The notes beneath the pieces were generated by a model that made no database searches, was not told where the DNA came from, and was given only the letters and a program-made list of their open reading frames with translations. A stretch of 24,000 nt of DNA from Methanofollis aquaemaris. Its GTDB lineage: Archaea > Halobacteriota > Methanomicrobia > Methanomicrobiales > Methanofollaceae. The translations under genes were made by a program, and so were the position numbers. Below, piece after piece: positions 1-22,624 of the stretch; position 1 is the stretch's first letter; every line of letters begins with the position of its first letter. The stretch lies in NCBI RefSeq assembly GCF_017357525.1, contig NZ_CP036172.1, positions 818,561 to 842,560 on the forward strand, read 5' to 3'.

Positions 1-382
1 CACCGGTGATGCCGTTCTCGGACGAGTTTACTCTGCACAACGGGGAAGAAGAAAGGTGACGGTCCACGGCGGCGCTGTCGGAGAGTGCCAGGGCAGTGTC
101 TTCAGGTTTCGCCGCCGTGCGGTGCATCTCCTCGGTGTTGTCCTGCGATGGCCCCGTGGCCTCCTTACCGGGAGATCTCCGGTGCAGATCCCTTTCCTCA
201 GGGTCGTCGCCTTCAGACGAACCGGGGGTACCGAGTTGCATCTTTTCCTTGCCGGGCGGCCGATCGGACACCTGCCTGCCGGGGAGAAGCGCTGGCGGAT
301 CAGGTGGCCGTTCGGGCTCTTCGTCAATGAAGAGGCGCTCCCGCGGTTGATCTCAGATAAAGATCAGGGGATACGGCCATGA
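1..382 (+). CDS. S26-type peptidase-like protein, C-terminal part only (5' end lies outside the window); paralog of 5810..6457
   Basis: The frame is open from position 2 to TGA at 380-382. The translation (TGDAVLGRVYSAQ...VQIPFLRVVAFRRTGGTELHLFLAGRPIGHLP...NEEALP) aligns colinearly with the C-terminal ~125 aa of the ORF at 5810..6457. The stop overlaps the next start (ATGA at 379-382). Confidence 0.7.
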   Translation, partial: TGDAVLGRVYSAQRGRRKVTVHGGAVGECQGSVFRFRRRAVHLLGVVLRWPRGLLTGRSPVQIPFLRVVAFRRTGGTELHLFLAGRPIGHLPAGEKRWRIRWPFGLFVNEEALPRLISDKDQGIRP

Positions 383-1527
383 ACCGCCGTGCCGGAACCG
401 TGCCGTCGGCCGAGGCGATCCGGGAACTCCACAGCATATACTCTCTCTGTGGCGTGCCGAGGAACGATCTCCTCTCTGTCTCTGACGATCTCCTCCTCTA
501 TCTCTCTTCGATCCTGCGGAATGAAGAGGCTTCTCCACCGGAATGCAGCCCGGAGGCATGGCGACTTCTCCTCCGCCGTCTGTCTCCGCACTGGGTGACT
601 CCGGTCCTGTACGGTTACCTCAGGTCGTGGGACCAGGCATGCCTCCCACCTGCAAAGGTCATGGAGACCGTACGCCGCGACTATCTCATCGGTAAGGTCC
701 GTTCGGTCCAGATGGACCGGCAACTCGGTGAGATCCTCACCACAGCAGAGGACCATGGGATCCGGATACTGATATTGAAGGGACCCGCTCTTGCCAGGTC
801 GGTCTACCCTGACCCCGCAATGCGGGGCGGGGGTGATCTCGACGTGCTGGTCTACCCCGACCAGGTGGAAGAGACCGAGAACCTTCTCGGGGCTCTCGGG
901 TACCGGTGCGATGATAGATTCTTTGCGGTCTCCAAAAATTATTATCATGAAGAGACATTTCTCCCGGACAAAAAAGATCTCGGGAATTTAGCAGTCGAGA
1001 TCCACTGGCGGTGTGCCCCGTCGCTGGGTTTTGTCCCTGCAGTCCCACCGGAGGAACTCTTCTCACGGGCCGTAACCGTCCATACCGATCAGTTCACCTT
1101 TGAGACTCTGGCACCGGTTGACGCTCTCCTCCATACGGCGCTGCATATGATCTTTGGCCATACCTCGAGCATCCGTCTCACCTGGATCCATGACATCGCC
1201 CTGCTTGCTCGCCAACTCAGGGTACCGGAAGAGTGGTCGGTTCTCAGGTCAGCAAGTCGGGTATGGGGAGCACGGAATACCGTCGAGGTCGCCCTCACCA
1301 TGGCACAGGCCTGGACCGGCCTCACCCTCCCGCAAGGATTTGACGACTTCGATCTATGGCCGGCGCCGTCTGAGGAGGAGGTGGCGATCTGGCCCGACCT
1401 CCTGAAAAAAGATGCGTCACTCCGCACCTCTCTCAAACTCAAACTCTCGGTGCTGCCCGACAGAAGGGAGAGGGTCTCTATGTTGGGTTATTTTGCTGGC
1501 CGGAAGTTGAAACATCGATTCAGGTGA
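379..1527 (+). CDS. Nucleotidyltransferase-fold protein (resembles Pfam PF14907 'uncharacterised nucleotidyltransferase'), copy 1
   Basis: 382-aa ORF with an ATG start coupled to the upstream stop. It carries a Pol-beta-type signature (LILKGPALARSVYPDPAMRGGGDLDVLV, i.e. G..x(n)..DxD). By eye it is ~75-80% identical over its full length to the ORF at 6450..7598. Confidence 0.75.
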   Translation: MNRRAGTVPSAEAIRELHSIYSLCGVPRNDLLSVSDDLLLYLSSILRNEEASPPECSPEAWRLLLRRLSPHWVTPVLYGYLRSWDQACLPPAKVMETVRRDYLIGKVRSVQMDRQLGEILTTAEDHGIRILILKGPALARSVYPDPAMRGGGDLDVLVYPDQVEETENLLGALGYRCDDRFFAVSKNYYHEETFLPDKKDLGNLAVEIHWRCAPSLGFVPAVPPEELFSRAVTVHTDQFTFETLAPVDALLHTALHMIFGHTSSIRLTWIHDIALLARQLRVPEEWSVLRSASRVWGARNTVEVALTMAQAWTGLTLPQGFDDFDLWPAPSEEEVAIWPDLLKKDASLRTSLKLKLSVLPDRRERVSMLGYFAGRKLKHRFR

Positions 1528-1636
1528 TCCAGATCGGTCCGGCCCGGTCGGCACCCCCTCATCTCACCGCCACCCGACCCGTCACACTCATGCTGATATA
1601 CCAGAACCACCATAGGCCCCCGCCGGGGTGAGATAG

Positions 1637-2266
1637 TTGAGAAGACCAACGGCATGTTTGATAGTATGGTGCCTGGCAGGGCTGACGATATGTGGCGTCT
1701 CCGCCATGGCCCCGCCGGCATGGATCGGGCCGGGAACGACCGTAACCTACGAGGCCGCACTGACGCCGTACTATGCGATCGACTCCGACGATCCCCTGGA
1801 GAGGTGGGTGCATTATGAAGGGACCGGAGTGTACGCCTTCTGGATCGACAGGGTCATGGAACGTGACGAGACCGGGTATTCAGGAGACTCGACGGTGATC
1901 AGCGCCTTCGATGGCAGCACCATGGTGGAGGGCGAGTGGTCGTATCAGGCGGGAGATCCGGGCATGGGCCTGTTCTGGGTTGATCTCGACGGCGTCGCCT
2001 TCAGTGCGGAGAACCTTGTCGCGGAAGGGCCGATGGAGGTCGCCGGAGAGATATGGGACGCTCAGGCCTATTATTATGCATCGATCGGAAACACCTTCGA
2101 CGTACGGTTCATCGTCGATAAAGAGAGCGGCCTCCTCCTCAGCAAGACCGAAGGGCTGACCGGTGCGGATGGCCGGATGCAACGGGCGATCTATGTCCTG
2201 CAGTCAATCGAAAACCCGCAGCCAGGGATGGGTAGGCCTGAGAACACCACCTCATGTCAGGAATGA
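1637..2266 (+). CDS. Secreted or membrane-anchored hypothetical protein (N-terminal signal-peptide-like segment)
   Basis: 209-aa ORF with a TTG start preceded by GGGGTGA (SD-like) 6 nt upstream. The N-terminus RRPTACLIVWCLAGLTICGVSA is basic then hydrophobic. I recognise no family. A truncated homolog lies at 7601..7911. Confidence 0.6.
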   Translation: MRRPTACLIVWCLAGLTICGVSAMAPPAWIGPGTTVTYEAALTPYYAIDSDDPLERWVHYEGTGVYAFWIDRVMERDETGYSGDSTVISAFDGSTMVEGEWSYQAGDPGMGLFWVDLDGVAFSAENLVAEGPMEVAGEIWDAQAYYYASIGNTFDVRFIVDKESGLLLSKTEGLTGADGRMQRAIYVLQSIENPQPGMGRPENTTSCQE

Positions 2267-2429: not shown

Positions 2430-4112
2430 TCAAAGGCTTACGGGTTCTCTCGTGAAGTCCAGCACAAGGGCCGGCATCCCGTGAACAGTCCTGAGATCGC
2501 ACCGGCCGCCACAGCGGGCGAACCGTCGCTGGCAGGCCCGGAGATGCGGCCAGTCGCCATGGAGAACACTGGACTGAACAGCAAGGGAAACCATTTCGCC
2601 GGTCCCGGTGGCGGAAACAGCGATCTTTTCCGCTCCCGCGGCAGTGAGACCCTCTATCACCGCGGTGAGCCCGTCACAGAGTCTTTCCGGGCGAGTCCGC
2701 ACCACAAGGGAGTCGGCGTCGTGGACAAAAGAGATGCGGACCTCTTCAAAGAGGGGGAGGTGGGCGATTCTCTGTGCAAGCGCGGACCTGAACGCGTCCT
2801 CGTCCTCAGCCGCGGCGAGAAGCGCCTCATCGAGATGTGAGGAATCGGAGAGGCGCCCGACAAACTCCGCCATCAGCGGGACGACGTCGACCGGCACCGC
2901 GGCGTCGGGAGGGTCGAAGGCGCAAACCGTATGCAGGCAATCGGTGAGCAGGCGAGAGGCCCGGCGCACCAGCGAGGTATCCGCGGCCGGGTCGTCGAGC
3001 CCCCGCCCGAAGGCTCCTTCGATCTTTGCCGCGACCTGCACCGCTTTGAGGACGAACTGAATGTCAATCTTACCACCCTCCCTGAACTCTGTGGCAAAAG
3101 CGTCGAAGTCCGTGAGAAATGCATCGATCATATCGGACTCGATGAGATGCTGGTACCGCTCCGCCTCCTCCACCTCGCCGAGGGCCTCAAGATAATAGGA
3201 GAGGTAATAGATCCTGCCCGAGATGATCGGAAACAACCGGTTTGCCTCGGCAAGCATGTCCTGCGCGTATTCGACCGACTCGCGCAGTCGATCGTTGTCG
3301 AAGTTCCCGATCGCCTTCATGCACTCCAGGTCGTCCTCAAGTTTCCCGAGGGCACGGAGGGTGTCGGGCACCGTGATCTCTCTCCCGTGCCCGTTCCAGC
3401 AGAGAGTGATCCCGCCGGCGGTCAGGATCCGGCGGACCTCTCCAGCCGAGGTGAGCAGGGCATCGGGGTTCCAGCCGTGGAGCCCTGCGACTCCAGGGTT
3501 TGCCGAGAAGAGGAGGTCGCCGAGGAAGAGGTGTTCGCCGACCCTTATGCAGACCGAGTCGGGGCTATGCCCGGGGGTGGCGTAGACTGAGATCAGGTTT
3601 CCCGACGGGAAGGTGAGGCGGTCTGCCGGGACGGCGGCATGCTCCTCATGTTCAAGGACGATCGTCTCGCCGTTTCCGAGAGACACCTCGCGTCCATCCC
3701 CATTATGGAGGCGTACATCAACCCGGAGGGGCTCGATCTCCCACTTGAAGATATCGGCGACGGTCTGCGATTCGTCTCCCGACTCAAGCGCTTCCGCCCC
3801 CTCGGCATGGGCAAAGACGACGACGCCTTTCTCCTCGATCCACGACCGGCGCCTGATCGCCTGAAGACAGTGATCGAGATGACAATGGGTGATGAAGAGA
3901 CAGACCGGACGGGGGCGTGCTGCAGTGAGGGCCTCGACCGTCGAGATAATCGTCTCCATCTGTGTTTCATCCGCGCCGGTGTCGATGATGACGATCTCGC
4001 GCTCTGTTGCGATCAGATAGGCGTTCGAACAGCAGACATCCGGTTTCCTTGTCAGGGGAAGGATGCGTGCCCCATCTGTCCCCGGGATCTCCCGCCAGTC
4101 ATTTTCTGCCAT
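2430..4112 (-). CDS. MBL-fold metallo-hydrolase fused to a long C-terminal domain of unknown function (possibly a degenerate histidine-kinase-like ATPase fold)
   Basis: The N-terminal half has the metallo-beta-lactamase motif ITHCHLDHC (HxHxDH) and later ATPGHSPDS and NGHG. The C-terminal ~280 aa are helical, ending in ...RPERLCDGLTAVIEGLTAAGAEKIAVSATGTGEMVSLAVQ...GGRCDLRTVHGMPALVLDF. The first ATG is at 4112, with GAGGAG ~12 nt upstream. The track start at 4124 is TTG. Confidence 0.7.
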   Translation of the reverse strand: MAENDWREIPGTDGARILPLTRKPDVCCSNAYLIATEREIVIIDTGADETQMETIISTVEALTAARPRPVCLFITHCHLDHCLQAIRRRSWIEEKGVVVFAHAEGAEALESGDESQTVADIFKWEIEPLRVDVRLHNGDGREVSLGNGETIVLEHEEHAAVPADRLTFPSGNLISVYATPGHSPDSVCIRVGEHLFLGDLLFSANPGVAGLHGWNPDALLTSAGEVRRILTAGGITLCWNGHGREITVPDTLRALGKLEDDLECMKAIGNFDNDRLRESVEYAQDMLAEANRLFPIISGRIYYLSYYLEALGEVEEAERYQHLIESDMIDAFLTDFDAFATEFREGGKIDIQFVLKAVQVAAKIEGAFGRGLDDPAADTSLVRRASRLLTDCLHTVCAFDPPDAAVPVDVVPLMAEFVGRLSDSSHLDEALLAAAEDEDAFRSALAQRIAHLPLFEEVRISFVHDADSLVVRTRPERLCDGLTAVIEGLTAAGAEKIAVSATGTGEMVSLAVQSSVLHGDWPHLRACQRRFARCGGRCDLRTVHGMPALVLDFTREPVSL

Positions 4113-4505
4113 CAACGCATGCAACTCCTCTGATCTTTTGTTGCTCCAGATAAACAGCGCGGTGCGGGCATATATGCCTGCCTTTCTTGTTCCGGCGCCG
4201 TCAAAAGATGCGCTATTTTAATCTGATAACTACCAGAAGCGGGGCGGCGAAACAGGGGAAAACCAAAGGGTGGCGATTGAACCGTATCTTCCGGATGCCC
4301 TGTCGCAAGGAGAGAGATCCCTCCACACTCTGAAGCACTGCTCAGAACAATGTTCATCACGTATGCTTGAACCCAAGGTTCATGCCCATTCTACAGAACC
4401 AGACCCCCTAGACTTTTGGGATAGACGCTCTTTCAAAACATCACATAGACAATTCATAATTCTTATAATTCAGAAAAGTGCCCTGAACCAAGAGACAATG
4501 GCTGA

Positions 4506-4530
4506 AAAATATTATAATAAAATATATATC
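4506..4530 (+). promoter_or_regulatory. AT-rich archaeal TATA/BRE-like promoter candidate for the small-ORF/kinase operon
   Basis: aaaatattataataaaatatatatcc sits in a ~480-bp AT-rich intergenic island between divergent genes, about 95-115 nt upstream of the ATG at 4622. A second TATA-like run (tagatatata) lies at 4598-4606. Confidence 0.35.
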
Positions 4531-4621
4531 CTACCACATCTGTGTTTGATACATCCTATTGCAACCATTTCCCCCTCCCTCAGGACACTGAAATGGTAGA
4601 TATATAGGAGAGGTGTCTTTG

Positions 4622-4792
4622 ATGAAAAAACAAACATACGAATCACCACGATTGATCGATCTCAGGGCACATGAGAAGACGATGGGATACGGTTCCCACT
4701 GCACCGGGGGGAGTGCACCCGCTGCTGTAAGATGTGACGACGGCTCATATGCCGTCGCATGTCAAAACGGCGGAGATGTAGGTCAAAATTAA
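4622..4792 (+). CDS. Small ORF (56 aa), candidate ribosomal precursor peptide: MKKQTYESPRLIDLRAHEKTMGYGSHCTGGSAPAAVRCDDGSYAVACQNGGDVGQN
   Basis: Hand-translated; below the 60-aa cutoff of the ORF track. A strong SD (GGAGAGGTG, 4607-4615) lies 6 nt before the ATG. It is on the same strand as, and 150 nt upstream of, the kinase gene. The N-terminus has a KKxxYxxPxL leader-like motif. The C-terminal part is rich in Gly/Ser/Ala/Cys (3 Cys). Confidence 0.6.
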   Translation: MKKQTYESPRLIDLRAHEKTMGYGSHCTGGSAPAAVRCDDGSYAVACQNGGDVGQN

Positions 4793-4941
4793 TTTCAGGA
4801 TATACCCGTATAGATCTGATTGAACAAGGAACGACAAGCAACAGATCCTATCCATTCCTCATGTACCGGAATCCGGGATTGAGACGGGCATACCCCCGGG
4901 AAATAGCAGAAAGATCGTGAAAGGGATCAATAGCGGTGAGC

Positions 4942-5820
4942 ATGTCCTGGAGTGAACATATCACATGGTATCCTTTCACTCTCGCGGACGAGAGTGAGTG
5001 GGCATTCGGGGCAGAGGACGAACTTTCAGACTGGATGGCCCGATTCGCAGCGGTCCTGAAACTCGAAGAAGGCCCTACAACCAACACAAGAAAGATTTTC
5101 TTCAGGCAAGACCCTCCCTACTCGCCGGGCTGGATCACTCAGGAACTCAGACATCTCAGAGTCTGGTCCCATGCCGACTGGCCCGGACATATCATCCAGA
5201 TCCCCCCCGGGCAGGAGGAGAATCCTTCAGTCGATTTCTTCAGGATGAGAGAGGCGATCGGTTTTCTCTGCACCGAACTTCTCTCTTCAGGTGCACTCCC
5301 CCTGCATGCCGCACTCCTCTCCCGCGAGAACCACGGCATCGTGATCGCCGCCCCTGGCGGGACAGGGAAATCCACCTGTGCCGCACGAGCTCCTCCGCCC
5401 TGGCGTGCACTCGGTGACGATATGACACTCGTCGTCAGGGACATGAACGGTGCATATCACGCACATCCTCTTCCCACCTGGAGTGACATTACAGTGCGAG
5501 GGTACACCGAGTGGAGTTGGGATCTGAGGAAGAGCCAACCCCTCAGAGGGGTGTATTTCCTGGAGCAAGCCGATCAAGACGGAATGGTCCCGGTCGGGCA
5601 GGGAGAAGCAACCGCAGGAATCACAGCCTCGGCCATCCAGATTATCCAACTCTACCTGTGGCATATCGATACGCCCATCGCCCGGAGATTCAGAGCGGAT
5701 ATCTTTGCAAATGCATCAAATCTCGTCTGTAAAGTCCCTGCGTTCCGTCTCAGTGCCACGCGTCATGGCCGGTTCTGGGAGGAGATCGAGCGCTCGATGG
5801 CATCTTCCGGTGGGAGGTGA
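4942..5820 (+). CDS. HPr kinase/phosphorylase-like P-loop kinase (HprK-related; resembles ScmC and lasso-cluster kinases)
   Basis: Contains the P-loop IVIAAPGGTGKSTCA followed by ALGDDMTLV (HprK C-terminal domain pattern G.SG.GKS ... DD). The ~130-aa N-terminal domain has no motif I recognise. ATG at 4942; GTG at 4936 is an alternative start. Confidence 0.7.
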   Translation: MSWSEHITWYPFTLADESEWAFGAEDELSDWMARFAAVLKLEEGPTTNTRKIFFRQDPPYSPGWITQELRHLRVWSHADWPGHIIQIPPGQEENPSVDFFRMREAIGFLCTELLSSGALPLHAALLSRENHGIVIAAPGGTGKSTCAARAPPPWRALGDDMTLVVRDMNGAYHAHPLPTWSDITVRGYTEWSWDLRKSQPLRGVYFLEQADQDGMVPVGQGEATAGITASAIQIIQLYLWHIDTPIARRFRADIFANASNLVCKVPAFRLSATRHGRFWEEIERSMASSGGR

Positions 5821-6457
5821 GCGGACGGAGCGACCCTCACACATCTTTCCGAACAGACCCGGCCTCATCACCTATGTCGGGCCGAGCATGTACCCGACGC
5901 TCAGGACCCTTGACATCATCCGCTACCGCCCCTATGATGCAGGCTGCAGGATGCGGAGAGGTGACGTGATCCTCTTCCGGCCTCCAGGACGCAATCGGAT
6001 CGTCATCCACCGCGTCGTTGCAGTCACTCATGAAGGAATACGCACCCAGGGCGACAACAATCTCTCATGCGACCCCTATCTCCTCACCTGCGATGCCGTT
6101 CTCGGACGCGTCCTCTCCGCACATAGGGAAGGGAGAGAAATAGCGGTCCGCGGCGGCGCGGCAGGGTGGTGCCGCGGCAGCGCCCTCCGTCTGCGACGCC
6201 GTGCGGTACACACCCTCGCCGTTGCCCTGCGACACCCTTGCGACGCTCTTGCCGGGAGATGCCCGATACAGATTCCTTTCCTCCGGGTCGCCGCCTTCAA
6301 GCGAACTCGCGGCACCGAACTGCACCTTCTCCTTGCCGGGCGATCGATCGGACGTCTCCCGACCGGGGAGAGGCGCTGGCTGATCAGGCGACCGTTCGGG
6401 CTCATCGTGAATGAAGAGGCGCTCCCGAGACCAAAACCAGAGGGGAACCATGAGTAA
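5810..6457 (+). CDS. Soluble S26-family (signal-peptidase-I-like, Ser/His archaeal/ER type) peptidase with an Arg-rich C-terminal extension
   Basis: Carries S26 boxes in order: GPSMYPTL (Ser nucleophile), RGDVILFRPP, IVIHRVV (His rather than Lys, as in the Sec11/archaeal type) and GDNNLSCD. There is no hydrophobic N-terminal anchor in any candidate start. The GTG at 5810 overlaps the kinase stop by 11 nt; ATG 5765 is the alternative. The ~110-aa C-terminal extension is conserved with 1..382. Confidence 0.7.
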   Translation: MGGERTERPSHIFPNRPGLITYVGPSMYPTLRTLDIIRYRPYDAGCRMRRGDVILFRPPGRNRIVIHRVVAVTHEGIRTQGDNNLSCDPYLLTCDAVLGRVLSAHREGREIAVRGGAAGWCRGSALRLRRRAVHTLAVALRHPCDALAGRCPIQIPFLRVAAFKRTRGTELHLLLAGRSIGRLPTGERRWLIRRPFGLIVNEEALPRPKPEGNHE

Positions 6458-7700
6458 CCATGCCGGTGTCCCGGACTCGACAACGGCTATCAGAGAAACT
6501 CACAACACATACTGGCTCTGTGGGAAGCCGAGAAACGATCTCCTCTCGGCGCCGGACGCACTCCTCCTCTACCTCTCTTCGGTCCTGCGGAATGAAGAGA
6601 TCCCTCCACCGGAATGCAGCCTCGAAGCATGGCGGCTTCTTCTCCGAAGCCTGTACCCGCACTGGGTAACACCGATCCTGTATGGGTATCTCAGGTCATG
6701 GGACCGGGCACATCTCCCACCTGCGGAGGTCATGGAGATCATACGCCGCGAATATCTCATCGGCAAGGTCCGTTCGGTCCAGATGGACCAGCAACTTGGT
6801 GAGATCCTGACCGCAGCAGAGGACCACGGGATCAGGATGTTGATACTGAAAGGCCCCGCCCTCGCCAGATCGATCTACTCTGACCCCGCGATGCGGGGCG
6901 GGTGTGATCTCGATCTGCTGGTCTGCCCCGATCAGGTGGAAGAGACAGAGGATCTTCTCGTGGCTCTCGGGTACCGGTGCAATAATAGAACATTTGCAGT
7001 CTCAAAGAATTTTTATCATGAAGAGATGTTTCTCCCGGACAAAAATGATTCTGGATGTTTAGCGGTCGAGATCCACTGGCGGTGCGCTCCCTCGGCGGGG
7101 TTCGTCACTGCTGTTCCACCTGAGGAACTCTTCTCACGGGCTGTAACCATCAGCACCGATAAACTCACCTTTGAAACCATGGCGCCGGTTGACGCTCTCC
7201 TCCATACAGCACTGCACATGGTCTTTGGCCACACCAGGAACATCCGCCTCACCTGGATACATGACATCGCCCTCCTCGCAGGCCAGCTCAGGATCCCGGA
7301 GGACTGGGCGGCGGTGAGGGACGCGAGTGCTACGTGGGGTGCACGGAATGCCGTCGAAGTCGGTCTCACGATGGCGGAGGTCTGGACCGGCCTCACTCTC
7401 CCGCAAGGATTCGATGACTTCGATCTCTGGCCTTCGCCATCCGAGAGGGAGGCGACGATCTGGCCCGATCTCCTGAGAAGAGACGAATCGATTCCTTCCT
7501 CTCTGAAACTCAGTCTCTCGGCGCTGCCTGACAGAAGAGAGAAGATCCATATGCTGAGGTATCTTGCCGGCCGTACGTTGAAGAATCTCTTCTGGTGATC
7601 CGGGCACGGGCCTGTTCTGGATTAAACTCGACGGTGTTGCCTTCAGTGCGGAGACCTCTGTTGCGGAAGGGTCGATGGAGCACGCCGGGGAGCGGGATCG
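6085..7700 (+). repeat. Segmental duplication, copy B, with an internal ~430-bp deletion relative to copy A
   Basis: Same gene order as copy A. Sequence equivalent to 1528-1963 of copy A is absent. The junction sits at a shared GATCC (tgatccag at 1525-1532, agatccgg at 1964-1971, tgatccgg at 7596-7603). Confidence 0.75.
6450..7598 (+). CDS. Nucleotidyltransferase-fold protein (PF14907-like), copy 2
   Basis: With ATG 6450 the product is 382 aa, the same length as copy 1, and this start overlaps the peptidase stop by 8 nt. The motif LILKGPALARSIYSDPAMRGGCDLDLLV is present. The track start at 6411 adds a non-conserved extension. Confidence 0.75.
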   Translation: MSNHAGVPDSTTAIRETHNTYWLCGKPRNDLLSAPDALLLYLSSVLRNEEIPPPECSLEAWRLLLRSLYPHWVTPILYGYLRSWDRAHLPPAEVMEIIRREYLIGKVRSVQMDQQLGEILTAAEDHGIRMLILKGPALARSIYSDPAMRGGCDLDLLVCPDQVEETEDLLVALGYRCNNRTFAVSKNFYHEEMFLPDKNDSGCLAVEIHWRCAPSAGFVTAVPPEELFSRAVTISTDKLTFETMAPVDALLHTALHMVFGHTRNIRLTWIHDIALLAGQLRIPEDWAAVRDASATWGARNAVEVGLTMAEVWTGLTLPQGFDDFDLWPSPSEREATIWPDLLRRDESIPSSLKLSLSALPDRREKIHMLRYLAGRTLKNLFW

Positions 7701-7911
7701 TTCCCAACCTGCTTTCACTTTTACCCTGGTTTTCACTGACATACACTCAGGAAGTGTCACCATACGGGCGGACATTAGGGGCGCGATTGCCGATCCCGGC
7801 CTTTTCACCCCAATCTTCTCCGTCATGTTCACCAGGATCCCGATCGCGCACACACCCACCCCGAGACCCCGACGGATCAGATCTGCTCTGTGCCCCCCCA
7901 TTTTGGTGTAA
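7601..7911 (+). pseudogene. 5'-truncated remnant of a paralog of the 1637..2266 secreted-protein gene
   Basis: 7601-7700 aligns at nucleotide level with 1964-2063 (ccgggca(t/c)gggcctgttctgg...gccttcagtgcggaga...gcggaaggg.cgatggag). The encoded PGTGLFWIKLDGVAFSAETSVAEGSMEHAGE matches DPGMGLFWVDLDGVAFSAENLVAEGPMEVAGE. The N-terminal ~108 codons, including the signal peptide and start, are missing. Confidence 0.65.
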
Positions 7912-8335
7912 CATAGTACTCTGAGAGAGAGAGATCTCTCTTCTCTCTCTAGAATATGCATTCTGAGCCTCTTCATCCGTTCCCTTTGTGTTCACTTTTC
8001 CAGTGTAACTCCGGTGAAAACAGGGTGAAAAGGTGTCATTGTTCGGGGGGTCGGGGTCGAACCAGACATGCACGCCTCCACTCCACTGGGGATACGCCGC
8101 CAGGTCGGGGTGACCGGCGGCACCGCTGAAGAGAAGGAGGGAGAGAGAGTATAAAAAGGAAAGGGGATTTGTCCGAAAGTGGGAACGTCGGTGTCTCGCG
8201 AGATGGTGGCGGTCAGGCGAGATTGTCGTAATAATCCGACTCTGTTGAATCGGGCATGAACCCTGGGTTCCCCATACGTGATGGACCGGCAGAGGACGGG
8301 AACCCCCTCTGAACGATTCCCCGCTCGCCTTCCCA

Positions 8336-8498
8336 CCCTATCGCAATCCCGGGGGTTCCGGGGGCAGCGCCCCCGGCGCGTATGATGAGGGAAGGCACGG
8401 CGATCAGAAGGGCCGCCCCGCCAGAAGAACGAGAAACTTTATCCTGCTCTCTCGCGCCGGGGGGAGACCCCCCGGACCCCCCACGACGAAGATAGGGG
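8336..8498. repeat. Long imperfect inverted repeat (arms 8336-8380 and 8453-8498, 72-nt spacer) built from a G/C-palindromic element
   Basis: The left arm ccctatcgcaatcccgggggttccgggggcagcgcccccggcgcg pairs with the right arm cgcgccggggggagaccccccggaccccccacgacgaagatagggg. The right arm has an internal perfect hairpin ccgggggg-aga-ccccccgg (8457-8475). The left arm has ccggggg-cagcg-cccccgg. Confidence 0.7.
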
Positions 8499-8923
8499 TC
8501 GGGCGGCAGAGCACCCGGTGAAAGGATAGAAGAAGGCGAGGAATGGATGTTCACGCCACGAGGAGAGGAGAGTTTTACACCATCATCTTTCTTTATCTCT
8601 GGCAGAGGGGGAAGCCAGGAGAGTTTTGGGATGACCTCATGAAATGAATTTCATGCGGTATGCCTGAGGAGTGCTTTCGCCTCATGAGCGATTCTACAGA
8701 GCTGATATTTTATTTCAGCCTCACGGATCCTTCACCCCTGCTGTTCAAGGTTGGCGGCGCAAGAGGTGAGAGTGCCGTTCGCAAGTCCACGGGCGATGGA
8801 GCGGTCTGCATACTCGTTCTTAACGATATGAAAAGAGCGACCTGATCGCGTTGGCGCGGATTTCATACACATGCCTTCAGTCAGGGCAGGAAAAGCGTTC
8901 GGGATTTGGACCCAAAATCAGAG

Positions 8924-8996
8924 TGCTGCCATGGGGATTCGAACCCCAGTCGTCGGCGTGAAAGGCCGACATGATTGGCCACTACACTATGGCAGC
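8924..8996 (-). tRNA. tRNA-Glu (anticodon UUC)
   Basis: A 73-nt cloverleaf was folded by hand: acceptor GCTGCCA/TGGCAGC; anticodon stem TCGGC/GCCGA with loop CTTTCAC; T-arm TGGGG-TTCGAAT-CCCCA; discriminator A. No CCA is encoded. Confidence 0.9.
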
Positions 8997-10438: not shown

Positions 10439-11827
10439 TTATGGTCCGTTCAGCCGTTCCCTGCACCGGGAGACGAATCCCCGGTACAGGGCGGCGCTCG
10501 CCACCGGGTGGAGGTGGGTGTAGCTCGCGAGCACGTTGCCGCGGACCGCCCCGTCCATGCCGCCCGAGATCCCGGTACCCCTGGAGAGACGGTAGGCATA
10601 GGTCGTGCCCTCGTCGAGAATAACCTCGGAGTAGTGGAACTCGTGCCCCCGAAACGCCCAGTCGCCGAAAGGACAGGCAGGACCGGACCGCCCCTCGACA
10701 TAGCCCAGAGACCGGCGGGCCGGAATGGCCGCCTCGCCGGGCAGGACGCCGCACATCTCGTAGACCTCCTCGTGCTCCCGTCCCTGCCAGCCTGAGCGCA
10801 GGACCAGGCGGTCGGTGAGGTAGATGAGCCCGCCACACTCGGCATAGATGGGAACGTCGTTCTCAGCGGCGGCACGGAGTCCTTCCCGCATCCTGACATT
10901 TTTCTCCAGTCCTCCGGCGTAGAGTTCGGGATACCCGCCGCCGAGGATATAGCCGTCCGCCTCGGGGAAGGGGTCGTGGATGGGACTGAAGGTCACGACC
11001 TCCGCACCCAGCGCACCGAGGAGGTCGAAGAGATCGTTGTAGTAGAAGTTGAAGGCCTCGTCGTAGGCGACCGCGACCCTGAGGTCGGGTGCCGCCTGCA
11101 CCGGCGCAAAGATCTCCTCGGCCGGACCTTTCGGGGTGCACTCGACCATCAGCGCCTTCAGGGCGTCGAGGTCGATGCACGATGCCACGACGTCTTGAAT
11201 AGCCTCGACCCGCGCCAGAAAGTCGTCGCCCTCCTGCCCCTCGCGGTACGGGACCAACCCGAGGTGGCGCATCGCCAGCTGCATCCCCTCGTCTCTGGGG
11301 ACCGCACCGATCACCGGGAGCCCGCAGTAGTGTTCGATGGCTCTCGTGGTCTTTTCACGGTGACCTGCGGTCCTGATGTTGTTGAGGATGACGCCGGCGA
11401 CCTTCACCTCGGGGTCGAACCCGGCATAGCCGTTGACGATGGCGGCGGCGCTCCTGGTGATGCTCCGGGCGTCCACGACCAGGACCACCGGGAGGTCGAG
11501 GGCCTTGGCGACCGAGGCGGTGCTGCCGGCATCGCCCAGGGCCTCGGCACCCTCGAAAAGACCCCGTACCCCTTCGACCAGGGCGAGGTCGGCGCCCTTC
11601 GCGCCGTGCTCGAAGACTCCCTGCATCTGGGCCGGGGACATCACATAGGAGTCCAGGTTCCGGCAGGGTCGTCCGGTGACCGCCGTCAGATACGAGGGGT
11701 CGATGTAGTCCATCGCCACCTTGTAGGTCTGCACCGTGGCCTCCCGCGAGAGGAGGGCGGCGAGGGCGAGGGTGATGCTCGTCTTCCCGCTGCCCGACCG
11801 GTCGCCTGAGATGAGGAGTCCTTTCAT
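10439..11827 (-). CDS. cfbB: Ni-sirohydrochlorin a,c-diamide synthase (CbiA/CobB family amidotransferase)
   Basis: Starts [22 protein letters not shown] (P-loop) and has a C-terminal glutamine amidotransferase block ([17 protein letters not shown]). It sits in the cfb operon. ATG 11827 is preceded by GGGGAGAG. The 105-codon upstream extension in the track overlaps cfbD and was rejected. Confidence 0.85.
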
Positions 11828-11831
11828 CCGC

Positions 11832-12905
11832 TCACTCTCCCCGTGCCATGCTCCGGAGCACCGCCCCGAACTCGCTCTCCACGATCTCCCTGACCCCGAG
11901 GGTCTTGGGATGGAGGTCGACCTCGACGACGACCATGGCATGGCCGATCCCCTTGAGGGGCGCGACCTGTCTGGGGCCGTTGGTGACCGAGATCGTCTCG
12001 ATCCCGTCGGTGTACTCCGGCGGGACAGCGTGGGGCACGCCGACCAGGAAGGCGAAGTCGGGTTTGATCTCCTGGATCCGTTCGCCGACGGCCTCGCCGT
12101 TCTCCCCGTACTCGTCGAGGGCGCCGAGGAGTTCGGGTTCAAGCCCCCGCTCCTTCATCCCGGTGAGGATGCGGGCGCCGTCGGCCCGCACCTTCGGGAG
12201 GCCCCGGTCTTCGAGGTTGGCAAGATAGGTGATCTCGGCCTCAGGGCAGGCCTCGCGGAGGGCGCAGAGTTCATCGGCAAACATGTATGCCGTTTCTTTC
12301 TTCGCGTTGAGCACCGCGACTCCCCGCTTCCCGCTCCTCGCAAGGTCGAGGATACGGCGAGCGGCGAGGTGCTTGAGGTCGCCACGGGACGGTTCGATGT
12401 ACGGCTGCGATGCCGCACCCCTGAGCCGTTCCACCTGGTTTGCCGCAGCGAGGAGGCGGCGTTGACGTTCGAGTTCCTCCCCGTCGATCCACCCGGCCCG
12501 TGCGGCGGGTTCGAGGACCGCAAGGACGCCCTCGATGTTCTCCCTGAAGCCGGCATGGATATCGACTGCGATTGTCGGGGTCTCGACACCCGACGCCTCG
12601 ATGGCCGCCTCGATATCCTCGCCGATGATCATCGAGACGCAGGTGCCGATCACCGCCATCCGCGCCGGGGAGAATTCTGTCTCTGCGTACCTGAGCACCC
12701 GTTCCAGAACGCCCTGGCCACCGAAGATGAACTCGTTCTCACCGAGCGAGGTGGTCAGGACTCGCATTCCGTCTTCTTCGAGGAGACGGGCATGCTTGAA
12801 CGAGCAGCCCGAGGGGCCGTGGAGGATGGCCACCTCCACCCCGAGGTCGCGGGCGGTATACAGGGAGGCGACGATCGAACTTGGCCGTGGTTGTACGTAT
12901 TCCAT
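11832..12905 (-). CDS. cfbD: Ni-sirohydrochlorin a,c-diamide reductive cyclase subunit (nitrogenase NifD/NflD-like)
   Basis: A nitrogenase component-1-like protein (ILHGPSGCSFKHARL, VIGTCVSMIIGEDI) located between cfbE and cfbB. ATG 12905 is preceded by GGAGAT and lies 1 nt after the cfbE stop. Confidence 0.8.
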   Translation of the reverse strand: MEYVQPRPSSIVASLYTARDLGVEVAILHGPSGCSFKHARLLEEDGMRVLTTSLGENEFIFGGQGVLERVLRYAETEFSPARMAVIGTCVSMIIGEDIEAAIEASGVETPTIAVDIHAGFRENIEGVLAVLEPAARAGWIDGEELERQRRLLAAANQVERLRGAASQPYIEPSRGDLKHLAARRILDLARSGKRGVAVLNAKKETAYMFADELCALREACPEAEITYLANLEDRGLPKVRADGARILTGMKERGLEPELLGALDEYGENGEAVGERIQEIKPDFAFLVGVPHAVPPEYTDGIETISVTNGPRQVAPLKGIGHAMVVVEVDLHPKTLGVREIVESEFGAVLRSMARGE

Positions 12906-12906
12906 T

Positions 12907-14088
12907 CTATCTCCATGTCTTGACGGCAAGGACAATAGTCCCACCGTTGCTCATCTGCTCTGCTCTGCTGATCCCGTCCTCCAGGTCGGCAGCCGTGACG
13001 GCGCCGGCCGGGAGGTCGTCTGCGTCGTAGTCGCCGACGATGACCGTTTTGTCTGGCCCGATCTCCTGCACCGCCGCCACCACTTCGTCGGCCGGGAAGC
13101 CCTCGCAGATGGTCTGGCCCTCGGTCCCGATCACCAGGACAAAGGGTGCGCCGCCTCCGAGGGCCCGTGCGTACGCGGCGGCATCGGCGGCGATCTCGCG
13201 GCATGCGCCGCTGTTCGCACAGTCAACGGTGAGCCGACCGTGCTCGCGGGAGACCGCCATCCGCCCGGTAAGGGGAGCGAAGTCCGCCAACCCCGTCGGG
13301 TCACGGCCCAGCAGACAGGCCGCGACGGCCGCCATCTGCAGCGGCGTCCGGTATCCCCGTAGGGCAAGGAGTGGGTTCTCAAACGAGCCCTGCACCTCCC
13401 CGTACCGGTAGATACAGTGCGTCCCCTCGACGACGGCGACCTCATCGGCGCCGACGGCGCCCGGCACCGTCACCCCGGCAGGGACGAGCACCCGTGCCGC
13501 GGCAGCGAGAGAACGGACCTTCTCGGTGATGGCCCGTCTCTTCCCGGCGGCGCAGGGGTAGTCGTCGCCCGAGGTGAGGACGGCAAGGTCGCCGGCCCCC
13601 GAGACGCCGAGAGACTCTTCGGCGATCAACCACCCGCCGCACTTGACCGCCTCTCTCGCGGCCGGGAGAACCGAAGCCGGCGTGATGGAGCGTCTCCACA
13701 GACGCCGACGCTCGGGAAAAACGAAGGTGCCCATCGAGGTGTGAAGCACACCACGGCCGCCAAGCACATGCGCCAGGGCCGTCGCCGTGGTGGTCTTCCC
13801 CCTCGCACCGGTGACCTCGACCATCAATCCGGGTCGGGATGAGAGAAGGAGGAGGCGGACCGCCTCATGATGGGTGATGACCTCGGGCCCCCGCCTGAGC
13901 AGGGGATGATCGGGATCGAGGTGGACCGGGGCGACGATCAGATCGTAGGATCGTCTCGCCGCCTCGGCAACAGAGATCCCGACCTCGCCGCGGTAGACGT
14001 CCACCGCATCGACGGTGTGCCCGGCCCCCTCCAGTGCCTCCGCAATCTCAGTGCCGCCATGGATAGTATCGAGGACGAGGACTCTCAT
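12907..14088 (-). CDS. cfbE: Coenzyme F430 synthetase (Mur-ligase family)
   Basis: Has the Mur-ligase P-loop VEVTGARGKTTTATALAHVL. Its size and its position directly after cfbA (zero-nt gap) fit the cfb operon described for methanogens. Confidence 0.8.
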   Translation of the reverse strand: MRVLVLDTIHGGTEIAEALEGAGHTVDAVDVYRGEVGISVAEAARRSYDLIVAPVHLDPDHPLLRRGPEVITHHEAVRLLLLSSRPGLMVEVTGARGKTTTATALAHVLGGRGVLHTSMGTFVFPERRRLWRRSITPASVLPAAREAVKCGGWLIAEESLGVSGAGDLAVLTSGDDYPCAAGKRRAITEKVRSLAAAARVLVPAGVTVPGAVGADEVAVVEGTHCIYRYGEVQGSFENPLLALRGYRTPLQMAAVAACLLGRDPTGLADFAPLTGRMAVSREHGRLTVDCANSGACREIAADAAAYARALGGGAPFVLVIGTEGQTICEGFPADEVVAAVQEIGPDKTVIVGDYDADDLPAGAVTAADLEDGISRAEQMSNGGTIVLAVKTWR

Positions 14089-14493
14089 TCAGACGTTTGC
14101 GTTGATCGCATCCTCGGCGTTCTTGACCATCAGGTCGGCCAGGAGGGGGTCGGGCCCGATGGGACCGGCATAGACCAGCGGGATCTCGCCGTTGTTGTGG
14201 GCGAAGGTGCCCTTATTCTCGCCCTCGGGGAGGCCGAGAAGGGCCGGGATGTCCTTGACGATGTGGATGCCCTTCGCAAGGAAGAGTGGGACGACGACAA
14301 GCATCTCGATCTCGTCCTCCTTGAAGAGATTCAGGGCGTCTTCCACGGTCGGGGTGTTCATGGACATGAAGCCCGGCCTGACCAGGTATTCAGGGTGCTG
14401 GTCTGCGATGTGGGCGGCGGTCTTTTCGATGAGTTCCTGGTTATAGGACAGCTTGCTGCCGTGTCCGACGAGTAGTAATCCCTTTTGTGACAT
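14089..14493 (-). CDS. cfbA: Sirohydrochlorin nickelochelatase (small CbiX-type chelatase)
   Basis: A 134-aa CbiX(S)-like product (LLLVGHGSK..., VVVPLFLAKGIHIVKDIP). It is the first gene of the cfbA-E-D-B string. Confidence 0.85.
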   Translation of the reverse strand: MSQKGLLLVGHGSKLSYNQELIEKTAAHIADQHPEYLVRPGFMSMNTPTVEDALNLFKEDEIEMLVVVPLFLAKGIHIVKDIPALLGLPEGENKGTFAHNNGEIPLVYAGPIGPDPLLADLMVKNAEDAINANV

Positions 14494-21353: not shown

Positions 21354-21746
21354 TCAGGTCACAGCATCAAGAATGACCTGCGACGATCCGTCTTTGTAGG
21401 TCGCCATGACCATCACCCGATGCCCTCCCCGGGGATCGGCGACCGGAGTGGCATTGAATGCGGATGCTCCGACCTCATGATCGAGCCGGTTGGTCTGCTC
21501 GATCCCGTCGATCGTCCAGTTCAGGTGATCGACATCCCGCTCCCCCATGCCGCCGACATAGGTAACGGTGATCGTGCCGTCTTCAAACTGCGTTGCCGTC
21601 GCCCCGACGATCCCGTTTCCCTGAAGATCTCCGGTGGTGCCAAAACCGAAGGAGGCAACGATGGCGGCAAGGATCACCGTGACGGCGACCATGAGGATAG
21701 CGGCGATGGTCGAGGAGACCGCGTCGTCATGTGCGGACTGAACCAT
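21354..21746 (-). CDS. Archaeal type IV pilin-like protein (DUF1628 / class III signal peptide)
   Basis: The N-terminus DDAVSSTIAAILMVAVTVILAAIVASF is the archaeal pilin N-terminal domain pattern. GGTGGAG lies before the ATG. Confidence 0.8.
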   Translation of the reverse strand: MVQSAHDDAVSSTIAAILMVAVTVILAAIVASFGFGTTGDLQGNGIVGATATQFEDGTITVTYVGGMGERDVDHLNWTIDGIEQTNRLDHEVGASAFNATPVADPRGGHRVMVMATYKDGSSQVILDAVT

Positions 21747-21784: not shown

Positions 21785-22192
21785 TCAGACGAAGGTGTCC
21801 AGGACAACCTGCGTTGTACCGTCGTTAAACAGTGCTGCAGCAACCACATGTTCCTTTGCGGAGGTGCCAAGACCAGTGAATGTGGTTGAATTCCCAACTT
21901 TAGGTGTTTGCCAGTTCTCGGTGTGCTTTGTGTTTGAAGAATCAGTGACAGTTATGTTGAGCCACAGCATGTCGCCTGCGTCCGGACCGCCCTGATAGGT
22001 GACCATAATATCCTGACCCTGCTGGGTCGCAGTGGCGGCGACACTCTTAGTGCCAGACATGTTGCCGGCCATACCGAAAACAAACGCGGCGATGACGGCC
22101 GCGAGGATCACCGTGATGGCGACCATGAGGATGACGCCGATAACCGGCGACACAGCCTCGTCATTCTTCTCAAACTTCTCAAACAGTTTCAT
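21785..22192 (-). CDS. Archaeal type IV pilin-like protein (DUF1628 / class III signal peptide)
   Basis: From ATG 22192 the product starts MKLFEKFEKNDEAVSPVIGVILMVAITVILAAVIAAFVFG, a canonical DUF1628 N-terminus. The upstream 25 codons in the track were rejected. Confidence 0.8.
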   Translation of the reverse strand: MKLFEKFEKNDEAVSPVIGVILMVAITVILAAVIAAFVFGMAGNMSGTKSVAATATQQGQDIMVTYQGGPDAGDMLWLNITVTDSSNTKHTENWQTPKVGNSTTFTGLGTSAKEHVVAAALFNDGTTQVVLDTFV

Positions 22193-22624
22193 CGGTTTCA
22201 CCACCCTACCCGTACAGGTAGGATAGTATATGCTCTCATGGCACAGTATATCAAGATTTTGATCCAATCGACCTTAGATCCGGAGATTGTTATATATATA
22301 TTTTGATTTGAGTTTTTTAAAACGCAACTCCGGGCCAGAAAATCCCGAATTTATGCACGGATGACGCACCACCTCCCGCACCCGCCCCTGCGCCCCCATT
22401 CTGAAGGAGTAATTCCCTGAAAAAGCGATGAAATATTCCTCTCTTCATATGGATTCATATACATTACACCAGACTCTCAGGTCCAGGATTATCCCGATGT
22501 CCGGGCCATAAAATAGCGCCAGATAATAATATATCTAAGTTCCGCAAGATCATGAGTGCCACTTATCCGGTAAACTCCAAAAAATAAATATTATGGAGAG
22601 CACCCTACAAATCAGTCCGATATC

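Follow-up and report, generated by a model that had tools for sequence, protein, structure and literature searches.

The SynChlorMet (Scm) cassette is a bioinformatic prediction of a RiPP system that is defined by a small set of curated profile models. These include TIGR04252 (SCM_precur_ScmA, NCBIfam), a model of 49 positions with a cutoff of 35 bits that describes the ScmA precursor peptide, as well as TIGR04249, TIGR04248, TIGR04250 and TIGR04251 that describe ScmC, ScmD, ScmE and ScmF, respectively. The library that we searched contained no paper on the Scm cassette or its product, nor on its TIGRFAM accessions or PF27840. Several components of the cassette do have described counterparts in lasso peptide clusters. 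For example, an HPr-kinase homolog in lasso clusters phosphorylates a serine, and the resulting phosphate then receives hexoses from a nucleotidyltransferase (PMC8498205). Additionally, a YxxPxL motif is conserved in lasso leaders, and an RRE both brings the precursor to the leader peptidase and stimulates the kinase (PMC10368454).

In this study we describe an open reading frame (ORF) of 56 codons in a 24-kb stretch of the Methanofollis aquaemaris chromosome, the whole of which is referred to below as the window, that very probably encodes a ScmA-type precursor peptide of the Scm cassette. The peptide gene is the first of a tightly packed series that continues with scmC, a gene coding for an S26-like peptidase and a nucleotidyltransferase (NTase) gene. 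The scmC gene starts 149 nt downstream of the peptide ORF on the same strand, scmC and the S26-like gene overlap by 11 nt, and the S26-like and NTase genes overlap by 8 nt. The features of the window that are discussed below are:

1-1527, plus strand: copy A of a duplicated half-cassette, comprising the 3' end of an S26-like gene (2-382) and an NTase gene (379-1527; PF14907, E=3.5e-49)
4505-4530, plus strand: AT-rich box, probable archaeal BRE/TATA promoter of the peptide operon
4622-4792, plus strand: scmA-like precursor gene, 56 aa and a TAA stop, with the leader at about residues 1-24 and the core at about residues 25-56
4637-4663, plus strand: leader recognition motif Y6-E7-S8-P9-R10-L11-I12-D13-L14, presumed binding site of ScmD (PqqD/RRE)
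4685-4693, plus strand: G22-Y23-G24 junction, [small]-x-Gly throughout the family, with cleavage proposed after G24
4700-4789, plus strand: core with three repeats of about 10 residues, C27-T-G-G-S-A-P, C38-D-D-G-S-Y-A and C47-Q-N-G-G-D-V
4942-5820, plus strand: scmC copy B, PEPCK/HPr-kinase-like P-loop protein (TIGR04249, 216 bits against a cutoff of 125)
5810-6457, plus strand: soluble S26-like Ser/His peptidase with a conserved C-terminal extension (TIGR02228, 53.8 bits)
6450-7598, plus strand: NTP_transf_5 nucleotidyltransferase copy B (PF14907, E=4e-48), present in 43 of 85 sources

Translation of positions 4622 to 4792 on the plus strand gives MKKQTYESPRLIDLRAHEKTMGYGSHCTGGSAPAAVRCDDGSYAVACQNGGDVGQN followed by a stop, and this 56-aa product exactly reproduces the one proposed in an earlier sequence-only reading of the same DNA. 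The residues that were singled out at that time are all present, including Y6, P9, L11, T20 and G22, cysteines C27, C38 and C47, and the tripeptides APA at 32-34 and AVA at 44-46. A mechanical ORF list enters the frame as 4613-4792 with a GTG start. We prefer the ATG at 4622, since a Shine-Dalgarno-like AGGAGAGGTG is located 6-15 nt 5' of this codon and since DNA homology between the window and its closest relative sets in at 4618, which is 4 nt 5' of the ATG. This relative is L001, a 9.6-kb Methanofollis-like contig that carries P0001, a close homolog of the window peptide with 77% identity and equal length (E=9e-21). The peptide had been described as unlisted, and it is indeed absent from both protein search results and gene records. 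Specifically, a word-indexed search of 5.8 billion proteins returned P0001 as the sole match and did not return the window's own peptide, and none of the gene records has the 56-aa peptide as its product.

Assignment of this peptide to the ScmA family does not follow from the curated model. TIGR04252 gives no match to the window peptide even at E<=10, with the 35-bit cutoff not reached, and it gives three matches, all under the cutoff, in a set of ten peptides. TIGR04252 is in fact a narrow model that matches 15 of 47 aligned family members at E<=1, with a best value of E=6.6e-10. Because this model misses the window peptide, ScmA membership rests on transitive profile evidence together with genomic context, and because the model does match 15 of the 47 relatives we class the ORF as a divergent representative of a known family. 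The profile evidence comes from a leave-out profile of 55 peptides, none of them from Methanomicrobiales, that detects the window peptide at E=1.7e-6 (29.6 bits) with the best reversed decoy at E=1.5. The window peptide is a divergent ScmA member, and as such a new and unannotated addition to a known, bioinformatically defined family. The sequence-only reading was right to see a RiPP precursor here, and what it overlooked was the existence of a curated family, ScmA (TIGR04252), for such precursors. A context-blind exhaustive profile search of 1.84 billion representatives provided one further relative, P0196, which is encoded directly upstream of a ScmC gene and has a core that is window-like (HCTEGSAPA…C.TGSYA..CQ). 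This search recovered just two relatives that were already called as genes.

To obtain a broader sample, genomes in GTDB were scanned with an alignment-based ScmC query that provided 80 further ScmC loci, M. aquaemaris not being among the loci returned, whereas the same scan with a single ScmC protein as the query returned nothing. Bacterial loci are from Syntrophales and other Deltaproteobacteria, Chlorobiaceae, Omnitrophota, Aminicenantes, Nitrospirae and anammox bacteria, while archaeal loci are from Methanocella, Methanothrix, Methanolinea, Methanogenium and Methanoregulaceae. Gene order in these loci is typically scmD, two radical SAM genes, the peptide gene, scmC and the S26-like gene, with NTase and ABC transporter genes following in some, all in the same orientation. 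ScmE exhibits 65-70% identity between archaea and bacteria. An iterative leader profile that was run on six-frame stop-to-stop segments of 85 sources recovered 64 leader-bearing segments from 45 of them. Under a relaxed criterion, which requires a leader-like motif and two or more C..G units at intervals of 8-12 residues, 59 of 84 ScmC loci are positive with no reversed decoys. Of the 77 loci with enough upstream sequence, 46 have such an ORF in the orientation of ScmC, ending no more than 700 nt upstream of it.

The leader of the family has the consensus (K)K-x-x-[YW]-E-x-P-x-L-[IV]-x-L, followed by [small]-x-Gly. Alignment of 47 family members shows that P9 is invariant and that Y/W6, E7, L11 and L14 are conserved, and the window peptide contains every one of the positions used in a broad-family test of the leader (Y6, E7, P9, L11, L14 and G22-x-G24). 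The motif from Y6 to L14 is identical in P0001, and this 100% identity continues through the leader as far as G24. The suggestion that this leader is of a kind bound by PqqD-like RRE domains is thereby strengthened at the sequence level, as Y-x-x-P-x-L falls on the most conserved positions of the family, with the proline invariant. The same does not hold for the Thr20-x-Gly22 sequence that had been likened to a lasso junction. T20 is found in the window peptide and P0001, its column in the alignment of 47 members consists largely of gaps, and the junction that is conserved is instead [small]-x-Gly24. G24 is nearly invariant in this alignment; among 62 peptides the residue at the -3 position of the junction is small in 92% (A 27, G 18, V 6, S 3, T 3), and the junction Gly sits 2-3 residues ahead of the first core Cys. 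A Sec-type signal peptide also has to be given up, as the leader KKQTYESPRLIDLRAHEKTM contains no hydrophobic segment and the adjacent S26-like proteins have no membrane anchor.

Downstream of the junction, the family core is composed of 21% Gly, with Ala, Ser, Cys and Thr at about 10% each, and is built from repeats that have Gly at C+3 in 75% and Ala or Pro at C+6 in 42%. The spacing between successive cysteines has a mode of 10, with spacings of 9, 10 and 11 seen in 35, 91 and 44 intervals, respectively. The window core conforms to this pattern with Gly at C+3 in three of three repeats and Cys spacings of 11 and 9, and the distance from Tyr to the first Cys is 21 as compared to 17-22 in the family. 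All three cysteines and the C+3 Gly positions are kept between the window peptide and P0001. The APA and AVA tripeptides had been viewed as possible internal S26 sites (A-x-A), a role that is not supported given that their alanines occupy the conserved Ala position of the repeat (C+6/C-4).

Directly downstream of the peptide gene, the product of scmC is 100% identical to P0002, a protein that NCBI names ScmC. A 6.1-kb Logan contig bearing P0002 consists of the window sequence plus 209 nt. The GGTGKST P-loop (Walker A) and a DD pair are invariant in ScmC, and an AF2 model with a pLDDT of 91 has PEP carboxykinases (PEPCK) as its top Foldseek matches. The PEP carboxykinase superfamily also includes HPr kinase. 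The neighbor that had been called a kinase is this protein, and its identity as ScmC had gone unrecognized. The S26-like gene begins at a GTG at 5810, as fixed by alignment to L001, and is present in 69 of 85 sources, most often directly after ScmC. Its product retains the GPSMxP, HR and GDNN motifs (catalytic Ser/His/Asp) and has no N-terminal transmembrane anchor; a structure model based on a 2-sequence alignment had a pLDDT of 38 and was uninformative. Upstream of the peptide gene and on the opposite strand is a gene of 564 aa coding for an MBL-fold protein, which occupies the place held by scmD in the ortholog locus. Between the two, a 12-nt AAAAATATTATA is identical at window positions 4505-4516 and L001 positions 4320-4331 amid intergenic DNA that is otherwise unalignable, and the AT-rich box of which it is part would be the promoter of the peptide operon. 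GC content drops to 0.48 in window positions 4001-5000. RNA of the intergenic region between the peptide gene and scmC is not significantly structured (z=0.05) and thus gives no indication of an attenuator.

The window contains no gene for ScmD, ScmE or ScmF, for PqqD or for any radical SAM protein anywhere in its 24 kb. The situation is different in L001, where the peptide gene sits between divergent scmD and scmC. Genes for ScmD, ScmE, ScmF and an ABC transporter are read away from the peptide gene on one side, and scmC, the S26-like gene and the NTase gene follow it on the other. The curated models score ScmD at 115 bits (cutoff 100), ScmE at 603 (cutoff 400) and ScmF at 572 (cutoff 400) in L001. 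All three of ScmD, ScmE and ScmF, which a complete cassette has in one locus, are present beside the ortholog in L001 and are missing from the window. Nucleotide homology between L001 and the window extends from 4618 to 7573. M. aquaemaris nevertheless has a ScmE of its own, P0075, which is encoded elsewhere on the same chromosome and scores 615 bits against the cutoff of 400. The sequence-only reading had anticipated that maturases could be located outside of the window, and both the adjacency of ScmD/E/F to the ortholog in L001 and the ScmE on the M. aquaemaris chromosome agree with this.

The peptide-proximal genes of the window are also duplicated. Window positions 1-1530, which we term the older copy, have 78.6% nucleotide identity to 6085-7601, with the NTases of copies A and B being 76% identical and the C-terminal regions of the S26-like proteins having 69% amino acid identity. 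The genome encodes a second ScmC, P0004, that is 52% identical to the ScmC of the window, in keeping with the prediction that a copy A of the module exists. A 99-nt remnant of a 209-aa gene at 7594-7692 marks the edge of the duplication. The much lower identity between the ScmC paralogs (52%) than between the NTases (76%) or the S26-like C-terminal regions (69%) is a hint, drawn from sequence comparison, that ScmC may be the precursor-specific component of the half-cassette. Since ScmE is present on the chromosome and since the leader is identical to that of L001 from Y6 to G24, the most economical reading is that the window copy would be a satellite half-cassette relying on ScmD/E/F that act in trans.

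From these observations we propose the following route of maturation. ScmD, which is a PqqD-type protein, probably binds the Y-E-x-P-x-L leader, given that the lasso PqqD chaperone is what it matches best outside its own family and given the precedent of YxxPxL recognition by an RRE in lasso systems. ScmE and ScmF, both radical SAM/SPASM proteins, would then modify each of the Cys-containing repeats, for which Cys-derived cross-links such as thioethers appear to be the most likely product. ScmC and the NTP_transf_5 enzyme may decorate the peptide through a phosphate, by analogy to the activities of their lasso counterparts. The cytoplasmic S26-like Ser/His peptidase would remove the leader after Gly24, cutting between …KTMGYG and SHCTGG…, and the ABC transporter would export the product. 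The S26-like protein is the best candidate for the leader peptidase because it is present in 69 of the 85 sources, because its motifs are kept and because the junction fits the -3/-1 rule. To our knowledge, no cytoplasmic S26 Ser/His peptidase has been described as a RiPP leader peptidase. In the window, where the half-cassette is separate from the genes for ScmD, ScmE and ScmF, we suggest that these proteins serve it in trans, with ScmE being the one that was found on the chromosome.

A different possibility is that the satellite half-cassette no longer depends on the radical SAM enzymes, with only ScmC, the S26-like peptidase and the NTase acting on the precursor. Its product would then be a linear Cys-containing peptide that is trimmed of its leader and carries a phospho or nucleotidyl decoration. 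The absence of scmD, scmE and scmF from the 24 kb, with an MBL-fold gene in place of that arm, would be expected under such an arrangement, as would the duplication of the remaining genes as a unit and the divergence between ScmC paralogs that suggests specificity for a precursor. However, between Y6 and G24 the leader agrees at every residue with that of an ortholog that sits beside ScmD/E/F, and therefore its RRE-type motif is still under selection. Furthermore, an intact ScmE is present in the genome (P0075, above), and the three cysteines and C+3 Gly positions are retained. We thus consider independence from these enzymes to be unlikely.

It is more improbable still that copy B is a decaying and non-functional duplicate. 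The degraded edge of the duplication, with its 99-nt gene remnant, and the absent ScmD/E/F arm could both be viewed as signs of decay, but the frames of the copy B peptide, ScmC, S26-like protein and NTase are all intact with conserved catalytic motifs. Moreover, L001 retains orthologs of both the peptide and ScmC, and the promoter box is common to the window and L001.

There is only a very slight chance that the peptide ORF is an untranslated chance frame in the 5' untranslated or promoter region of scmC. The ORF is short, was missed by PGAP and other gene callers and does not match curated families. Nevertheless, comparison with P0001 shows the pattern of a coding sequence, as lengths are equal with no indels, nucleotide differences between the two ORFs are distributed as 7/10/16 over the three codon positions with most at the third, and dN/dS is about 0.24 for the leader. 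The value for the core is about 0.54, which is calculated over 34 codons only and by itself carries little weight. By comparison, intergenic DNA upstream of the ORF cannot be aligned between the window and L001 save for the 12-nt box. Additionally, a Shine-Dalgarno-like sequence precedes the ORF, and the leader and core signatures recur in 59 of 84 ScmC loci with zero decoys. A lack of conservation would have spoken against the gene, and what is seen instead is a 77% identical homolog, constraint on the leader and relatives that are adjacent to ScmC. The 56-codon ORF is a real gene that has been left out of public annotation.

A lasso precursor, in which a B1 RRE would bind a Y-x-x-P-x-L…T-x-G leader and a lasso cyclase would be encoded elsewhere, has next to no likelihood and is rejected, for although Y-x-x-P-x-L is present with a Thr two residues before Gly22, phosphorylated lasso clusters also contain HPr-kinase-like and NTP_transf_5 genes, and 2 of 47 family members weakly match lasso_leader_L3 (E=0.017), there is no Asp/Glu ring acceptor at core positions 7-9 (T28, G29 and G30 when counted from G22; S31, A32 and P33 when counted from S25), no asparagine-synthetase-like cyclase or transglutaminase-like B2 protease is found by Pfam in the window, L001, L002, L003 or L085, T20 falls in a column that is largely gapped across the family, and relatives carry two radical SAM/SPASM genes instead. 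The core had already been judged to be non-lasso from its lack of Asp/Glu at positions 7-9 from G22, and this judgment stands; the resemblance to lasso leaders that had been remarked upon also has some basis in the weak lasso-leader matches and in the similarity of ScmD to lasso PqqD, with the exception of the T-x-G junction.

Identification of this gene closes an annotation gap, as the peptide is absent from public annotation and is invisible to the curated ScmA model. A ScmA model rebuilt from the approximately 90 sequences that were collected would let annotation pipelines name such genes. The Scm cassette is widespread among strict anaerobes, both bacterial and archaeal, and a defined precursor makes it approachable through a leader motif and a repeat unit, with candidates for both the cleavage site and the leader peptidase. 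The window peptide itself would be a radical-SAM-modified peptide from a methanogen. We tentatively suggest that Scm products could represent a structurally new RiPP class, a generalization that is possible though in our judgment somewhat short of probable, in which 2 to about 20 C-x-x-G-x-x-A repeats are modified by ScmE/ScmF, the peptide is decorated by ScmC and NTP_transf_5, the leader is removed after a small-x-Gly site by a cytoplasmic S26 peptidase, and one set of ScmD/E/F can act in trans on behalf of a portable, precursor-specific half-cassette. The interest that remains is in the chemistry of the Scm cassette, which is predicted by bioinformatics.

For completeness, we compare the window locus with known systems. 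The nearest is the ScmA family itself (TIGR04252), with which the window ORF shares a location adjoining ScmC, a Y-E-x-P-x-L leader and a Gly/Cys-rich core. Relative to typical ScmA loci, the window locus differs in that it lacks ScmD/E/F, contains a duplicated half-cassette and has an MBL-fold neighbor. Clusters for phosphorylated and phosphoglycosylated lasso peptides (paeninodin, pseudomycoidin and bsf) resemble Scm in having a Y-x-x-P-x-L leader, a PqqD-type RRE, an HPr-kinase-like P-loop enzyme, a nucleotidyltransferase (NTP_transf_5 in Scm) and an ABC exporter. Unlike these clusters, Scm has no lasso cyclase, B2 protease or Asp/Glu ring acceptor and instead has two radical SAM/SPASM enzymes and an S26-like peptidase. 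ScmC itself is also distinct, as it scores 33 bits with HprK_rel_A, far below the cutoff of 200.

The S26-like protein of the window is comparable to the NiSOD protease SodX and to other soluble S26 peptidases in having the motifs of the fold with no membrane anchor. The proposed role, removal of an N-terminal propeptide, would likewise be common to them, with the leader as the putative substrate of the window protein. The two nevertheless differ, as the window protein scores 27.5 bits with TIGR02754, below the SodX cutoff of 63, and, unlike SodX, has a conserved C-terminal extension of about 100 residues that is specific to Scm cassettes. Finally, sactipeptide and ranthipeptide systems such as PapB/freyrasin and AlbA/subtilosin share with Scm a radical SAM/SPASM maturase with an RRE and a Cys-rich core, and the repeated Cys-containing units of Scm recall those of freyrasin, which has repeated Cys-X3-Asp units. 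ScmE and ScmF score far below the cutoffs of every characterized maturase family that was compared, with values for ScmE of 90 bits against 340 for PapB, 86 against 850 for AlbA and 105 against 625 for StsB. Unlike sactipeptide and ranthipeptide systems, Scm has two paralogous maturases, a standalone PqqD and a repeat of the form C-x-x-G-x-x-A.

A unit comprising the genes for the peptide, the P-loop protein ScmC, the S26-like peptidase, the NTase and a 209-aa protein is present in two copies as the result of an old tandem duplication. Positions 1-1530 and 6085-7601 of the window are 78.6% identical at the nucleotide level, and at the protein level the ScmC paralogs of the two copies share 52% identity, compared with 76% between the NTases and 69% between the C-terminal regions of S26. 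The gene for the 209-aa protein is carried by copy A, the partner lying partly inside the window, and is reduced to a 99-nt remnant in copy B (1952-2050 vs 7594-7692).

1637-2266, forward strand: 209-aa protein with a signal-peptide-like N-terminus, after the copy A NTase gene

A family search with this protein returned no match, and among the Scm loci compared it was seen only in the M. aquaemaris genome.

The region upstream of the peptide gene is occupied by a divergently transcribed gene:

2430-4124, reverse strand: 564-aa protein with an N-terminal metallo-beta-lactamase (MBL) fold and an extension of ~340 residues

This gene takes the place that scmD, scmE and scmF hold in L001, the Methanofollis-like contig carrying the orthologous peptide gene. 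The extension is without a family match, and no full-length counterpart of the protein was found in other Scm loci, the sole match being a weak and partial one to the MBL region at locus L038 (E=6.7e-10). The window and L001 have in common a AAAAATATTATA box upstream of the peptide gene (4505-4516 and 4320-4331, respectively) as well as the 5'-UTR elements ACACTGAAA…AGGAGA (4587-4621 and 4389-4423), while the DNA around these elements is otherwise unalignable.

The Scm module is bordered by a tRNA gene:

8923-8996, reverse strand: tRNA-Glu(UUC)

No convincing ORF was found in 7600-8900, and this ORF-poor stretch together with the tRNA gene might constitute an island boundary.

Elsewhere in the window, a reverse-strand cluster (10439-14493) encodes a CbiA/GATase_3 amidase, a nitrogenase-like Oxidored_nitro protein, a CbiX chelatase and a 393-aa protein for which a Pfam scan gave no match; the cluster appears to be one for coenzyme F430 (cfb) biosynthesis. 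The N-terminal parts of two small paralogous proteins (21354-21746 and 21785-22267, both reverse strand) contain a hydrophobic segment (…AILMVAVTVILAA…), and the proteins appear to resemble archaeal pilin-like proteins.

ScmA-like ORFs have been missed by gene callers in other Methanomicrobiales cassettes too, and the uncalled ORFs include:

L085, 6877-7068, reverse strand: ScmA-like ORF located between scmC and the S26 gene, not upstream of scmC
L002, 9695-9889, forward strand: ScmA-like ORF, Methanomicrobiales cassette
L013, 9741-9935, forward strand: ScmA-like ORF, Methanomicrobiales cassette

In some cassettes ScmA paralogs form arrays, numbering six in L052, five in L012 and four in L026, and L008 encodes giant ScmA variants with 19-21 Cys, CC pairs among these. 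Between Methanofollis and distant bacterial phyla, ScmE retains 65-70% identity (protein set P0075-P0194) whereas ScmC retains only about 35%, a disparity that points to what may be either unusually strong constraint on ScmE or its recent horizontal spread.
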